Of a stretch of 64,000 bases of DNA, positions 8,593 through 13,451 are shown piece by piece. Position numbers and translations under genes: made by a program. Below the pieces are notes generated by a model that saw only the letters and a program-made list of their open reading frames with translations, ran no database searches and was not told where the DNA came from. Numbering within the stretch: the first letter of the stretch is position 1; each line of letters opens with the position of its first letter. Source of the stretch: Flavobacteriales bacterium UBA5933 (lineage in GTDB: Bacteria; Bacteroidota; Bacteroidia; Flavobacteriales; Weeksellaceae); the NCBI GenBank assembly GCA_002430925.1, contig DJDD01000131.1, positions 20,935 to 84,934 of the forward strand, given 5' to 3'.

Positions 8593-9459
8593 ATGATCAA
8601 CTATCTAAAACTTATGAGAATTCACCAATGGGTGAAAAATATGTTTGTATTTCTACCTTTATTTTTTTCAGGAAAATTATTTGAATTCAATTTGTTAAAA
8701 GAATCTATTATAGGGTTTTTAATTTTTTCTTTTATTGCTAGTAGTATCTATATTATTAATGATTATGTTGATATGGAAAAGGATAAAAAGCATCCAGAAA
8801 AAAAGAATAGACCATTAGCAAGTGGTATAATTCCTAAAAATAATGCTTTAATATTATTTGTATTATTACTTATGATTAGTATTGCGTTATGTTTTTTTCT
8901 TGGAACATTAAAAGTCGGAATACTTGTTGCAATATATTTTTTTATGAATATAGCTTACTCATTCAAATTAAAACAAATAGCAATTTTAGATGTGATGATT
9001 ATTGCATTTGGATTTCTATTAAGAGTTTTAGTAGGAGGATATATGACAGGAATCATTATAACAGATTGGACAATATTATTAGTTTTTGATTTAGCATTAA
9101 TTCTAGCTTTAGGTAAAAGGAGAGGAGAATTGGCAAATGCAGAATTAGAAGGTGTGACAAGAAAATCTCTTGATGGATATAATTTAAATTTTCTTAATTC
9201 AGCTTTATCAGTTACTTGTACAGTAGCTGTTATGTGTTATTTAATGTTTATTTTATCTCCTGAAACACAGTCAAAATTTCATCATTATATTATATATACA
9301 TTTATTTTTGTTTTTGCTGCTGTACTTCGTTATATGCAACAAACATTTGTTTATATGAGAACTGAATCACCAACAAAATTAATTTTTAAAGATGTTTTTT
9401 TACAAATTTTAATAATTTTTTGGGGAATAAGTTATGTATTACTAATCTACTATAAATAA
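8593..9459 (+). CDS. UbiA-family prenyltransferase, polyprenyl-phosphate 5-phosphoribosyltransferase-like (Rv3806c type)
   Basis: YIINDYVDMEKDKKHPEKKNRPLASG (NDxxDxxxD followed by a basic RP-x-ASG block) in a protein with about 8 TM segments. The start abuts the upstream stop (TAAATG). Context: followed by DprE1- and DprE2-like genes. Confidence 0.7.
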   Translation: MINYLKLMRIHQWVKNMFVFLPLFFSGKLFEFNLLKESIIGFLIFSFIASSIYIINDYVDMEKDKKHPEKKNRPLASGIIPKNNALILFVLLLMISIALCFFLGTLKVGILVAIYFFMNIAYSFKLKQIAILDVMIIAFGFLLRVLVGGYMTGIIITDWTILLVFDLALILALGKRRGELANAELEGVTRKSLDGYNLNFLNSALSVTCTVAVMCYLMFILSPETQSKFHHYIIYTFIFVFAAVLRYMQQTFVYMRTESPTKLIFKDVFLQILIIFWGISYVLLIYYK

Positions 9460-9461
9460 TA

Positions 9462-10778
9462 ATGAATAATAAAAAACTTACACCAGTAGCTAATTGGGGA
9501 TTGTATCCAGCAATAAAAGCAAATGTAGTATCACCAACCACGTTATTAGAATTTCAAGAGGCAATTTTGTCGAATAAAGATATAATTGCAAGAGGAAATG
9601 GTCGTTGTTATGGCGATGCTTCTTTACAAAATACAATTATATCAACATCAAAATGGAATAAATTTATTGCTTTTGATAGAGAAAATGGAATAATAGAAGT
9701 TGAATCAGGTGTTCGTTTAGATGAGGTACTTGAAGCTTCTGTTCCTGCTGGTTTTTTTATTTCGGTGACCCCTGGAACTAAATTTATAACTGTCGGAGGA
9801 GCAATTTCATCAGATGTACATGGAAAAAATCATCATGTTGATGGATGTTTTTCTGATCATGTTATTCATTTTGATTTGATGATTGAAGATGGATCAATTA
9901 TTCGTTGTTCTAGAAATGAGAACGAAAACTTGTTTTGGTCTACAATAGGAGGAATGGGTTTAACAGGAGTTATTCTTTCTGCTAAATTTTTACTTAAAAA
10001 AATTGAAACTTCATACATAAGAAATGAAGCAATTCAAGCAAAAAATCTTGATGAGATTTTTGAGTTGTTTGAGTCTTCAGAATCTTGGACATATAATGTA
10101 GCTTGGTTAGATTGTTTGCAAAAAGGGAATAGCCTAGGTAAGTCAATTATGTTACGAGGAGAACATGCAACAATCAATGAATTACCAGATAAATTAAAAA
10201 ATAATCCACTAAAAATTAAGAAAAAACTTAATTTAAACATTCCTTTTTTCTTTCCTGGTTTTGTTTTGAATTCATTATCTATTAGAATATTTAATTGGAT
10301 ATTCTTCAATAAGCAAGGTAAAAAACATCTTAAGAATTATGTAGATTATGAAACATTTTTTTATCCTTTAGATGCAGTTCATAATTGGAATAGAATTTAT
10401 GGTAAAAATGGATTTATTCAATATCAATTTGTAATCCCTAAAGAAAAAGGAAAAGAAGGAATGAGAAAAATTTTGGAAACAATTGCAAAAAGTGGAAATG
10501 GATCTTTTTTAGTTGTTCTAAAATTATTTGGAGATAATAATCCACAAGCATATAATTCTTTTCCAATGAAAGGTTATACTTTGGCTTTAGATTTTAAAGT
10601 GAATAGTGGATTAGAGAAATTAGTGAAAGATTTAGACAAAATTGTAATGGAATATGGAGGACATATTTATAGAACTAAAGATGCAATGTCTAATCCTGCA
10701 TTAACAAATTATTTAAAAAATGTTGATTCAGACAAATTCGAATCAATGCAAAGTGAGCGTATCAATAGATTAAAATAA
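9462..10778 (+). CDS. FAD-dependent oxidoreductase, DprE1-like (polyprenyl-phospho-ribose 2'-oxidase)
   Basis: Blocks align by eye with M. tuberculosis DprE1: [94 protein letters not shown]. Confidence 0.85.
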   Translation: [438 protein letters not shown]

Positions 10779-10781
10779 AAA

Positions 10782-11507: not shown

Positions 11508-12097
11508 TGAATCGAAAATTATATCTATTTGATTTTGATGGAACATTAACTAAAAAAGATACATTATTTGATTTTTTGAGTTATTCGTTTCCCAAAGAAT
11601 ATTCATTCAATTATTTTTTATTCACTCCCTTATTTGTTCTAGCTAAACTAAAAATTCTAGATAAAGGTAAAGTAAAAGAAAAATTCATATCTAAATTTTT
11701 AAAAGGATTTTCAAAAACAGATATAGATAAGTTATCAAATAAATATTTTATAAATAATCATAATACTTTGATTTATCCTCAAGCAGATCTGTTTATAAAA
11801 TCAATAAATAACTATAATGATAAATTTATAGTATCTGCTTCTCTCGATTTTTGGTTGCAACCTTTTGCAGATTATTATGATATGGGATTGATTTGTACTA
11901 CTGCAGATTTTGATCAAAAAGGTAACTTTACTGGTAAATTTTTATCAGCAAATTGTAATTATATAGAAAAGAAAAACAGAATAGAAAAAGAAATAGATTT
12001 GTCAATTTATGATGAAATTATCGCTTATGGAGATACAAAAGGTGATGAAGCTATGTTTTCTATTGCGAATAAAAATTTCTATAGGTATTTTAATTGA
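11507..12097 (+). CDS. HAD-IB family phosphatase
   Basis: Motif I LFDFDGTLT, motif II VSASLD, motif III YGDTKGDEAMF. Its start overlaps the stop of the SDR gene. Confidence 0.75.
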   Translation: MNRKLYLFDFDGTLTKKDTLFDFLSYSFPKEYSFNYFLFTPLFVLAKLKILDKGKVKEKFISKFLKGFSKTDIDKLSNKYFINNHNTLIYPQADLFIKSINNYNDKFIVSASLDFWLQPFADYYDMGLICTTADFDQKGNFTGKFLSANCNYIEKKNRIEKEIDLSIYDEIIAYGDTKGDEAMFSIANKNFYRYFN

Positions 12098-12104
12098 AAA
12101 ATAA

Positions 12105-13451
12105 TTACCAAAAATAATCACCAATCATTTGCATTATAAATGTTTGTGTTAGTGCTGCATATGCAATGTTTAGTAAAATATATTTATTTTTTATATTAAT
12201 TAGTAACAATAAAAAATAAGGATAAATATATAAACATGCTCTTGCTGTTTCTCCAGTTCCATAAGCTCCAGTTAAAAACATTATAATTAATGAACTAAAA
12301 GCAATTATAGGTAAATAAAAGTTAATATCACCTTTTTTTAAATTAAAAATTTTTGGAGTAAATAAATAAGCAAAAAAACTGAAAGAAAGAAAAAGTAGAA
12401 TTTCACTTATATCTTCAATTCTAGTAAAAAAATAGACTAAAGGTTGATAAAATCCTCTAAAACCTCTAGGGTTTTCTGATTTTGAAGCAGCTAAAAAAGC
12501 TTCTAGGTGATTGTAGTTTAATAAAAAATAATAAATTAATAATATTAGTAAGAATAAACATCCAATTATTATAAAATTAAATAAAGGATAATAATTCTTG
12601 TGTCTTGTAAATTCAAATAAACAAATAATAAAAGCTACAAATGCTAAAAAACTACTACTGAATGATATAGAGCTAGCTAATGTAAATCCTATAAATGCCG
12701 TAATTATTCCAATATAGTTTAAATTATTAGATTTTATTATTAGAATTAAACCATATAGAAACGTAAGACTAAATAATAAAAATAAAGCATCAATTGATAC
12801 TATTGTATAAATATTAATTGCAGGAATTAATGAAAAAATTAGTATTAAAAGATTCTGTTTTGATTTTTCTATATTAAATAAGTTTAAAATTTTATAAAGA
12901 GGTATAAAAGATAATAAACCTATGAAAGACATGCACAATGATAAACCTAATACAGAGTAATTAGTTAATCTTAATAAAACATATTGAATCCATACTGCAA
13001 AGGGAGGATGTGTTTTTGCATGCATGGTTAATGAATCTTGTATTTTATTGTAACTTGTTATAAATGAATATCCATCTTTTATTTTTATAGCGTCATGGTA
13101 GTATTGAAAATCAGTATCAATAAAAGATCTCAGAAATGCGTAATGAATAGAACTTTGAGACAGATTACCTAACAAAATAAGAATAATATAAGAAAAAAAT
13201 AATTGCCAATAATTAAATTTTTCATATTTGTTCAATATAAATAAACCTATTATTAAGAATAAAAAAGAAAATAAAATCCCTTGTAAACTAAATTCAGAGA
13301 AATAAACAACACTTATAGGAAATGTTATTCTAGAACCTGTAAAATGATTATTTTTATTTAAATAATAATTTAGGAAAAGCATTATAATCCATCCAATAAT
13401 TAATAGTGATATCGTAATTATTGGAGTAGCTTTTAGTATATTTTTTTTCAT
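12105..13451 (-). CDS. Polytopic membrane protein, candidate GT-C (PMT_2/ArnT-like) polyprenyl-phosphate-sugar-dependent glycosyltransferase
   Basis: More than 10 predicted TM segments. The first large loop carries FIDTDFQYYHDA ... KTHPPFAVW, resembling the acidic D/E-x-x-YY plus HPP[LM] pattern of GT-C enzymes. It is the only minus-strand gene in the locus. Confidence 0.45.
   Translation of the reverse strand: MKKNILKATPIITISLLIIGWIIMLFLNYYLNKNNHFTGSRITFPISVVYFSEFSLQGILFSFLFLIIGLFILNKYEKFNYWQLFFSYIILILLGNLSQSSIHYAFLRSFIDTDFQYYHDAIKIKDGYSFITSYNKIQDSLTMHAKTHPPFAVWIQYVLLRLTNYSVLGLSLCMSFIGLLSFIPLYKILNLFNIEKSKQNLLILIFSLIPAINIYTIVSIDALFLLFSLTFLYGLILIIKSNNLNYIGIITAFIGFTLASSISFSSSFLAFVAFIICLFEFTRHKNYYPLFNFIIIGCLFLLILLIYYFLLNYNHLEAFLAASKSENPRGFRGFYQPLVYFFTRIEDISEILLFLSFSFFAYLFTPKIFNLKKGDINFYLPIIAFSSLIIMFLTGAYGTGETARACLYIYPYFLLLLINIKNKYILLNIAYAALTQTFIMQMIGDYFW

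Follow-up and report, generated by a model that had tools for sequence, protein, structure and literature searches.

The window analysed here, a stretch of 64,000 nucleotides (64 kb) from Flavobacteriales bacterium UBA5933 (assembly GCA_002430925.1, contig DJDD01000131.1, positions 20,935 to 84,934 of the forward strand), carries a cassette of four genes that very probably makes a lipid-linked arabinofuranose (Araf) donor. Next to it, on the opposite strand, lies a gene for a polytopic membrane protein, which is the likely candidate for the polyprenyl-phosphate-Araf-dependent arabinofuranosyltransferase of the cassette. An earlier note, made from the sequence alone, had read the four genes as a step-for-step counterpart of the pathway known from Corynebacteriales cell walls and the fifth as a GT-C glycosyltransferase. 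All five open reading frames (ORFs) were found again in the window translations, as listed below, and the tight gene junctions and the peptide blocks quoted in that note were verified in the window sequence.

8593-9459, plus strand: UbiA-like protein, 288 amino acids (aa)
9462-10778, plus strand: DprE1-like flavin adenine dinucleotide (FAD) oxidase, 438 aa
10782-11507, plus strand: DprE2-like short-chain dehydrogenase/reductase (SDR), 241 aa
11507-12097, plus strand: HAD-IB phosphatase, 196 aa
12105-13451, minus strand: polytopic GT-C-like protein, 448 aa

The stop of the upstream acyltransferase gene lies at 8592, and the UbiA-like gene starts at the very next base, 8593. The UbiA-like and DprE1-like genes are separated by 2 nt, the DprE1-like and DprE2-like genes by 3 nt, and the DprE2-like gene overlaps the HAD gene by 1 nt; the four plus-strand genes of the cassette are translationally coupled. 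The HAD gene and the minus-strand polytopic gene are convergent, 7 nt apart. A protein labelled Chishuiella sp. shares 97% identity with the DprE1-like protein; Chishuiella is a genus of the Weeksellaceae (Flavobacteriales), and the host of the locus is a Chishuiella-like member of that family.

Three cassette enzymes resemble those of Mycobacterium tuberculosis

As judged by sequence comparison, the similarities of the UbiA-, DprE1- and DprE2-like proteins to the M. tuberculosis enzymes are far above chance. The UbiA-like protein matched the Pfam UbiA family with 86 bits. On the two NCBIfam models for decaprenyl-phosphate phosphoribosyltransferase it reached 229.3 bits (NF008977, cutoff 234) and 207.2 bits (NF008978, cutoff 207), against at most 67 bits on the generic, haem, quinone and chlorophyll prenyltransferase models, a margin that bears out the resemblance to Rv3806c claimed earlier. 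Rv3806c was also its only match in the PDB (8j8j/8j8k; E 5e-40, 32% identity over 271 aligned residues). Its NDxxDxxxD motif is preserved, with N56, D57, D60 and D64 in place. In Rv3806c the head group of decaprenyl phosphate is bound by K28, Y157 and K191 (PMC10994848); the UbiA-like protein keeps both lysines, while the tyrosine is replaced by phenylalanine in the alignment. The protein is predicted to be a polyprenyl-phosphate 5-phosphoribosyltransferase (PPPRS, Rv3806c-like), which would form polyprenyl-phosphate-ribose-5-phosphate from phosphoribosyl pyrophosphate (PRPP).

The DprE1-like protein matched the NCBIfam DprE1 model NF053785 with 419 bits (E 2.5e-125), the next NCBIfam family following at 50 bits. 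In the PDB, DprE1 of M. tuberculosis and M. smegmatis was found with E 1.6e-84 and 39% identity over 371 residues, and the next family, cytokinin dehydrogenase, with E 6.6e-9. The HGKNHH sequence and the catalytic lysine (K418 of the M. tuberculosis enzyme, in 'YRTKD') are conserved. The protein is predicted to act as the DprE1-like 2'-oxidase of polyprenyl-phosphate-ribose. Alanine takes the place of M. tuberculosis Cys387, the covalent target of benzothiazinones, and threonine that of N385; with alanine in place of Cys387 the enzyme is expected to be insensitive to benzothiazinones.

For the DprE2-like SDR the best NCBIfam model was PRK07102 (234 bits), and the DprE2 model NF053786 gave 154 bits. 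Among PDB sequences, M. tuberculosis DprE2 (21gq_C) was the sole SDR below 1e-10 (E 3e-26, 31% identity over 236 residues). The alignment runs from end to end (residues 2-240) and includes the C-terminal IPxxIFKKL; the catalytic serine and the YxxxK motif are retained. This SDR is predicted to be the DprE2-like reductase that would turn the 2-keto intermediate into arabinose. The NCBIfam and PDB margins thus place the FAD enzyme and the SDR with DprE1 and DprE2, as had been proposed, and not with other oxidases of the vanillyl-alcohol oxidase type or other SDRs.

A HAD-IB phosphatase completes the cassette

The fourth protein scored 66 bits on Pfam HAD and 76 bits on the HAD-IB model TIGR01488 (cutoff 45). 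Residues D9, D11, G12 and T13 of the DxDGT motif, S112, K155 and G175-D176...D180 are invariant in 31 homologs, so that the HAD-IB assignment of the earlier note holds. An AlphaFold2 (AF2) model with a predicted local distance difference test (pLDDT) score of 95.4 matched PDB entry 3fvv best in a Foldseek search (template modelling (TM) score 0.81), followed by SerB-type HAD-IB enzymes. The model confirms the fold; it matches HAD-IB enzymes in general and speaks neither for nor against membership of the PRP family, the phosphatases of known pentofuranose systems. Sequence searches gave no significant match in the PDB and none at E <=0.01 to NF006088, the model of fused HAD-UbiA proteins.

Relatives of the protein numbered 2,288 among 1.84 billion representative proteins searched, and nearly all of them are unfused, with a length near 200 aa. 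No HAD-UbiA fusion was present in the 150 best representatives of the subfamily. Two other fusions were the only ones among these 150, namely P0349 (334 aa), in which the HAD homolog is joined to a GtrA/DPMS transmembrane domain, and P0250 (448 aa), with an N-terminal polytopic segment unrelated to the polytopic family of the window. The protein is a candidate for the 5-phosphatase of polyprenyl-phosphate-ribose-5-phosphate (the PRP role). A PAP2 family protein of the Rv3807c type was not matched among the 39 window ORFs scanned (all of at least 100 aa within 1-30384 and ten selected beyond), the cassette having the HAD-IB phosphatase instead. This pairing had been called unusual, which does not hold, since a HAD phosphatase fused to or beside the UbiA synthase is a described arrangement of Gram-negative pentofuranose systems (PMC11127046).

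The polytopic protein is predicted to have a GT-C fold

A search of 5.8 billion proteins gave 93 clusters for the family of the 448-aa protein, which is thus small; they come mostly from Weeksellaceae, besides scattered metagenome-assembled genomes (MAGs). Its members are labelled 'hypothetical' or, in UniRef, 'RgtA/B/C/D-like domain', and the window protein had no match in NCBIfam. In an alignment of 41 members the invariant or nearly invariant positions are P45/S47, Y117/D120, H144, H148-P-P, D221, E326-N-P, R344 and G395...T399-G-E...R404; FPISV, QYYHDA, KTHPPF, ENPxGFR and GTGETARA are motifs specific to the family. The block DTDFQYY...HPPFAVW, on which the earlier GT-C assignment rested, is present, and its QYYHDA and KTHPPF parts are conserved, but the DTD is not.

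The AF2 model built on the family alignment is that of an all-helical membrane protein and is of high confidence (pLDDT 93.5, predicted TM score 0.93), with about 12-13 predicted helices. Compared with the PDB by Foldseek, it matched GT-C enzymes at each of ranks 1-26, with probabilities of 0.47-1.0 and of at least 0.84 for ranks 1-23. These enzymes comprise ArnT, ALG12, AglB/STT3, AftA, Pmt1/2/4, EmbA/B, ALG9, PglB and DPY19, the best match being ArnT (5ezm/5f15) with a probability of 0.99-1.0 and a TM score of just 0.27-0.29. Beyond rank 26 mostly unrelated transporters and complex I subunits appeared (probability <0.1), with GT-C enzymes again at ranks 28, 31 and 33 (0.44-0.54). O-antigen ligases, polymerases and SEDS proteins were absent from the 50 matches listed. 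On the basis of this model we assign the protein to the GT-C fold class with moderate confidence, in agreement with the earlier suggestion.

Family GT136, founded by ORF12 of Citrobacter youngae, has an EpsG-like N-terminal membrane domain with conserved D31/E34/H106/R349 and a C-terminal carbohydrate-binding module (PMC11127046). The polytopic protein had no EpsG match in Pfam, hhalign against the EpsG protein of the window gave a probability of 0.6%, and at 448 aa there is no extra C-terminal domain; by these indirect comparisons it probably stands outside GT136. As judged by hhalign, the family profile is unrelated to the window EpsG, to the N-terminal part of P0250, and to two proteins described below, a DUF6044 protein of a phage contig and a 383-aa polytopic protein of a Chitinophagaceae MAG. 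Searches of PLSDB plasmids by tblastn with the polytopic protein found no match.

The cassette lies in a polysaccharide locus

Pfam scans of the surrounding genes delimit the following locus, which is the probable source of the acceptor glycan.

4462-25127, plus strand: host polysaccharide locus

It starts with a family 4 glycosyltransferase (GT4), two family 2 glycosyltransferases (GT2) and an acyltransferase_3 gene, after which the cassette stands. Downstream follow GT4, a hexapeptide acetyltransferase, GT4, acyltransferase_3, GT2, EpsG, GT2, a WecA-like gene, Wza, Wzc and Bac_transf. The assignments rest on Poly_export for Wza, GNVR/AAA_31 for Wzc, Glycos_transf_4 for the WecA-like protein and Acyl_transf_3 for both acyltransferases. 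The EpsG-family (Wzy-like) gene is located at 18338-19447, and the GC content within the locus is 22-29%. Two different initiating phosphoglycosyl transferases are present in this one locus, the WecA-like Glycos_transf_4 protein (20177-21271) and a small Bac_transf protein after Wzc (24546-25127).

The cassette and the polytopic gene recur in two architectures

When one genome of each GTDB species was scanned, 108 relatives of the polytopic protein came up, and 80 loci were retained for tblastn with the cassette proteins. The UbiA-FAD-SDR-HAD unit recurs in every Weeksellaceae locus examined. In every cassette examined the DprE1-DprE2 oxidase-reductase pair is adjacent, and the HAD gene follows or flanks the UbiA and DprE genes. 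DprE1 is 66-87% identical across Weeksellaceae genera.

The convergent architecture of the window, in which the polytopic gene comes after the HAD gene, is found in the same locus in Algoriella xinjiangensis, Empedobacter falsenii, E. brevis, Weeksella and several metagenomic contigs. Eight related loci, including those of Algoriella, Empedobacter and Weeksella, were compared. The cassette, the polytopic gene, GT4b, GT4c, GT2c, EpsG, GT2d, WecA and Wza were present in all of them, and Wzc was kept wherever the fetched stretch extends that far; GT2b, the acyltransferases and the acetyltransferase are variable. DprE1 is among the best-conserved genes of these loci (68-87% identity).

In the second architecture, genes for UbiA, a GtrA-family protein (135/143 aa), DprE1, DprE2, a homolog of the polytopic protein and HAD are co-directional and overlapping. 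This operon was found in Sulfurovum sp. CS9 (Campylobacterota; locus L064, 6553-11814) and in an Alteromonadaceae MAG (L062, 470-5790). The polytopic homologs, located between DprE2 and HAD, are 37-39% identical to the window protein. In Sulfurovum a DDE transposase precedes the six-gene operon, and Wza and Wzc directly follow it. The GtrA proteins of the two operons are 57-60% identical, and because the operons are similar to each other we count them as one additional architecture, not as two. The operon is a complete set of synthase, phosphatase, epimerase pair, flippase and GT-C protein. Since the polytopic homolog lies inside UbiA-GtrA-DprE1-DprE2-X-HAD operons, its family is tied to the arabinose genes. 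The adjacency from which the earlier note had linked the polytopic gene to the cassette therefore recurs within cassette operons of two other phyla.

Both elements also occur apart. About 30 genomes of Epilithonimonas and Chryseobacterium have the polytopic gene at a distance of 1-7 kb from an EpsG/Wza/Wzc locus and no cassette in its vicinity. The cassette of Chryseobacterium bernardetii and Epilithonimonas lactis is in a housekeeping context, between lepB/WbqC/S8 protease/OmpA on one side and aminotransferase/thioredoxin on the other, far from glycan loci. E. lactis carries the polytopic gene (L046) and the cassette (L095) at separate sites, so that the two co-occur at the level of the genome. 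A role of the cassette as a rare, serotype-specific decoration module was considered and set aside, given its conservation across genera and its core-genome context in Chryseobacterium and Epilithonimonas.

A different partner is seen in a Chitinophagaceae MAG (GCA_016710395.1; L092, 10001-14741), where the order is DprE1-DprE2-[383-aa unrelated polytopic protein]-UbiA-HAD. Identity to the window proteins is 72% for DprE1 and 64% for DprE2, and only 42% for UbiA and 31% for HAD. This suggests that the cassette is of mosaic origin or that the epimerase pair was transferred, and that another transferase serves as partner.

In the window, genes for a DUF4199 membrane protein and a GT2 are paired at 35616-37151. 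GT2 genes like this one (36189-37151) lie 2-3 kb from distant polytopic homologs in Anaerolinea and Acidobacteriota MAGs (L063, L078, L080, L084). This hints that some members of the polytopic family may use a hexose-type lipid-linked donor.

Comparison with known systems

In C. youngae a HAD(PRP)-UbiA fusion protein was shown experimentally to make undecaprenyl-phosphate-ribofuranose from PRPP (Kelly, Duong, Nothof, Lowary and Whitfield, PNAS 2024; PMC11127046). The predicted flippase of that system is a MATE protein, and the O-antigen receives the sugar in the periplasm through a GT-C enzyme, with which family GT136 was founded (PMC11127046). Auxiliary epimerases diversify the sugar, an SDR giving xylofuranose (Xylf), as from the ribose donor in Citrobacter O2, and DprE1/E2 homologs giving Araf (PMC11127046). 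For Gram-negatives a connection of DprE1/E2 homologs with O-antigens and exopolysaccharides that contain Araf had already been made, and Araf-type relatives of the Citrobacter prototype are found in Stenotrophomonas maltophilia and Rathayibacter (PMC11127046). The authors called this three-component strategy widespread, with GT-C partners mostly annotated as hypothetical and transporters varying between MATE and SMR (PMC11127046). The kind of system is known already, having been predicted to be widespread by Kelly et al. (2024), and the statement of the earlier note that the pathway had been tied to function in only a few cases outside actinobacteria is outdated (PMC11127046).

With the Citrobacter systems and their Araf-type relatives the window shares a UbiA synthase predicted to use PRPP, a candidate HAD 5-phosphatase, a GT-C-fold protein annotated only as hypothetical, the position in a surface-glycan locus and, as in systems for Araf, the auxiliary DprE1/DprE2 pair. 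It differs in that the HAD protein is a separate gene product and not an N-terminal domain, no MATE or SMR/GtrA transporter is linked in the window, and the GT-C protein is of an unclassified and probably distinct family, with neither an EpsG-like signal nor a C-terminal carbohydrate-binding module. Moreover, the host belongs to the Bacteroidota, and the polysaccharide pathway appears to be Wzy/Wza/Wzc-dependent instead of ABC-transporter-dependent. The PRP can be a separate gene, an arrangement that in the survey of Kelly et al. occurs in a phage example only (PMC11127046). One contig labelled 'Bacteriophage sp.' (MT837543.1, human faeces, 6.6 kb; L094) contains at 898-5419 a row of five genes. 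It starts with UbiA (42% identity) and HAD (29%, E 9e-28) and continues with an SMR/EamA-type small transporter, a NAD-dependent epimerase and a 565-aa DUF6044 polytopic protein. This row is a three-component layout with separate phosphatase, and DUF6044 may be another GT-C-like partner family of pentofuranose systems.

The mycobacterial and corynebacterial decaprenyl-phosphoryl-arabinose pathway resembles the window genes in its catalytic motifs and in the predicted order of reactions and use of a GT-C enzyme outside the membrane (identities of 32% to Rv3806c, 39% to DprE1 and 31% to DprE2). Unlike it, the window has a HAD-IB protein in place of the PAP2 enzyme Rv3807c and no homolog of Rv3789/GtrA. 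The candidate transferase lacks detectable sequence similarity to Emb and Aft proteins and matches them in fold only distantly. The carrier is presumably undecaprenyl and not decaprenyl phosphate, and the product probably decorates a polysaccharide and does not build an arabinan core.

The Gram-negative Pseudomonas aeruginosa glycosylates its group IV pilin with D-Araf by means of PsPA7_6245-6249 and TfpW; this system, too, has an Araf donor pathway with homologs of Rv3806c, DprE1 and DprE2, together with a GT-C transferase (bioRxiv 10.1101/2020.04.19.049825). There, in contrast to the window, the phosphatase is of the Rv3807c type (6245), a GtrA-like gene is in the cluster, and TfpW is a GT-C protein of 646 aa that acts on a protein acceptor; the context of the window suggests a polysaccharide acceptor. 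The ArnT/PMT_2 enzymes (GT83-like; Pfam PF13231) provide both the top Foldseek match and the sole Pfam signal of the polytopic protein.

Proposed pathway and alternatives

We consider it fairly likely that the locus is, in all its steps, an extracytoplasmic pentofuranosylation system of the three-component type, with D-Araf as its sugar. On the cytoplasmic face, the UbiA-like protein would join PRPP and polyprenyl phosphate to polyprenyl-phosphate-ribose-5-phosphate, from which the HAD-IB phosphatase would remove the 5-phosphate. Oxidation by the DprE1-like and reduction by the DprE2-like enzyme would then invert C2, yielding polyprenyl-phosphate-D-Araf. A transporter encoded outside the window would flip this donor, and on the periplasmic face the 448-aa GT-C-fold protein would transfer Araf to the Wzy/Wza/Wzc-dependent polysaccharide of the surrounding genes. 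The scheme draws support from its match to the characterised Citrobacter system and its Araf-type relatives (PMC11127046). Its chemistry, lipid carrier, acceptor, anomeric linkage and D-Araf product are all predicted, from the homologies, the modelled fold and the gene linkage described above. For the acceptor in particular, we give a slight preference to the polysaccharide of the window locus. Just short of even odds, and so tentatively, we propose that the 448-aa protein founds a new family of GT-C arabinofuranosyltransferases, that D-Araf is a conserved, so far unreported part of envelope polysaccharides in Weeksellaceae (Chishuiella, Empedobacter, Weeksella, Epilithonimonas and Chryseobacterium), and that the cassette needs no dedicated flippase gene.

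Several observations weigh against the proposed scheme. Both epimerase proteins score below the equivalog cutoffs of their models (419 against 500 bits for DprE1, 154 against 250 for DprE2), which is probably why homologs are named merely 'FAD-binding oxidoreductase' in the sources. The single Pfam match of the polytopic protein, PMT_2 over residues 148-302, stays below its cutoff (23.3 against 26.1 bits), the family profile found nothing among the sequences of solved structures even at E 10, and the Foldseek matches to GT-C enzymes are weak (E 3e-3 or worse, TM 0.27-0.47). The first periplasmic loop (residues 34-55) has the invariant P45 and S47 and no conserved acid; the near-invariant D120 lies with Y117, H144 and H148-P-P in the second loop, after helix 3. 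In Riemerella, Halpernia, Bergeyella and in MAGs of Chloroflexota, Planctomycetota and Acidobacteriota, the 10-kb flanks of the polytopic homologs contain no cassette, and for this reason the family may not be restricted to Araf donors. The housekeeping context of the cassette in Chryseobacterium and Epilithonimonas leaves room for an acceptor other than the polysaccharide made here. The searchable literature yielded no chemical evidence that any glycan of the Weeksellaceae contains arabinose.

A flippase is also missing. MatE, Polysacc_synt, GtrA, EamA and SMR had no match in the 39 scanned ORFs, tblastn of three GtrA-like sequences against the 64-kb window found nothing, and no Wzx/MOP flippase was found in the locus or the scanned ORFs, despite the presence of EpsG, Wza and Wzc. 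The absence of a GtrA-like flippase, noted earlier for the cassette, thus extends to the window. The flippase of the repeat unit and that of the lipid-phosphate-Araf must both be encoded outside it. In P. aeruginosa PAO1 the GtrA-like component is dispensable, which sets a precedent for systems that have no linked flippase of their own (bioRxiv 10.1101/2020.04.19.049825). Two proteins considered as flippases, a 171-aa ORF at 3842-4357 and a 157-aa protein encoded after the Chryseobacterium cassette, are soluble- or lipoprotein-like by sequence and were rejected.

The main rival to the proposed scheme agrees that Araf is made and transferred, and places it on another envelope molecule (lipopolysaccharide core or lipid A, a glycoprotein or glycolipid, or an arabinan-like polymer), the position in the locus being a lineage-specific rearrangement. 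The housekeeping surroundings of the cassette in C. bernardetii and E. lactis would fit such an acceptor, as would those of the polytopic homologs of Riemerella and Halpernia, which lie among ribosomal and other housekeeping genes; likewise, a DprE1 conservation of 66-87% suits a core function more than a serotype decoration. Yet the clade of the window keeps the cassette and the transferase between the glycosyltransferase genes of one unidirectional locus across the sampled genera, the polytopic gene neighbours EpsG/Wza/Wzc in the roughly 30 Epilithonimonas and Chryseobacterium genomes, and Wza and Wzc stand directly after the Sulfurovum operon. We regard a different acceptor as unlikely, though worth keeping in view.

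More improbable is that the polytopic protein acts as a polymerase or a ligase-type enzyme, or handles another lipid-linked sugar as a GT-C enzyme, and that Araf is moved by, for instance, EpsG (18338-19447) or an enzyme encoded elsewhere. The N-terminal part of the GT136 founder is labelled 'EpsG glycosyltransferase family' by CDD (PMC11127046), and the locus does contain an EpsG-family gene; this EpsG, however, travels with a conserved GT2/WecA/Wza/Wzc block, as expected of a Wzy polymerase. The polytopic family lacks curated annotation and its structural matches are weak, but the top 26 Foldseek matches are all GT-C, without a ligase, polymerase or SEDS protein among the 50 listed. Many family members have no cassette nearby, and some distant ones lie 2-3 kb from a GT2 resembling that at 36189-37151. 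Against this stand the position of the family between DprE2 and HAD in the Sulfurovum and Alteromonadaceae operons, loci that have no EpsG homolog, and its adjacency to the cassette in all loci of the Chishuiella/Algoriella/Empedobacter/Weeksella type. We consider it highly improbable that the DprE1/DprE2-like pair yields no arabinose and that the glycan carries a different pentofuranose, the product being ribofuranose, a 2-keto pentose or another epimer. Such an outcome could be read from the scores below the equivalog cutoffs, from the replacement of M. tuberculosis N385 and C387, and from Citrobacter O2, whose SDR leads to Xylf, so that the result of epimerisation depends on the enzyme. It is opposed by the nearly full-length alignments with M. 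tuberculosis DprE1 and DprE2, in which the catalytic lysine, HGKNHH and S/YxxxK are kept, and by the constant adjacency of the pair. In the published survey, too, DprE1/E2 homologs accompany Araf glycans and the ORF13-type SDR accompanies Xylf (PMC11127046).

Implications

New relative to the systems already described are the phylum, the cassette's recurrence over several Weeksellaceae genera, the unclassified GT-C family in two gene-order architectures, and a 64-kb window in which no flippase, Wzx included, was found. The examples of Kelly et al. come from Proteobacteria, Actinobacteria (Rathayibacter), a Bacillus and a phage, with no Bacteroidota in the main text or supplement (PMC11127046). 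Our literature searches for the DprE1, decaprenyl or arabinofuranose pathway in Flavobacteriia or Bacteroidota (Flavobacterium, Chryseobacterium and Riemerella included) returned nothing relevant.

Should the proposed pathway hold, the D-Araf donor pathway, known above all because anti-tuberculosis DprE1 inhibitors act on it, would extend to the Bacteroidota. A whole family that includes animal and opportunistic human pathogens would be equipped to place D-Araf on surface glycans, and an unannotated family of membrane proteins would gain a function as a candidate new family of arabinofuranosyltransferases. The compact six-gene operon of Sulfurovum and the Alteromonadaceae MAG appears to be a suitable minimal system for heterologous reconstitution. 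D-arabinan-degrading enzymes have been reported in gut Bacteroidota, and a non-actinobacterial source of D-arabinan-like epitopes could bear on them.

Further features of the window

The polytopic gene and the GT4 gene downstream of it are divergent and enclose a short intergenic region.

13452-13520, no strand assigned: divergent intergenic region between the polytopic gene and the downstream GT4 gene, 69 nt

This region contains the palindrome CAAAATTA-T-TAATTTTG, by which a TAnnTTTG motif is present on both strands. We take this motif to be the Bacteroidota-type promoter consensus, and the region probably holds two promoters, one for each flanking gene. No tRNA genes were found in the window. 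RNA matches were obtained at 1412-1515 (minus strand), 30802-30891 (plus strand), 51648-51726 (minus strand) and 35187-35293 (minus strand), comprising three Flavo-1 RNAs (45-56 bits, above the gathering score) and a small signal recognition particle RNA of the Bacteroidales type (103 bits).

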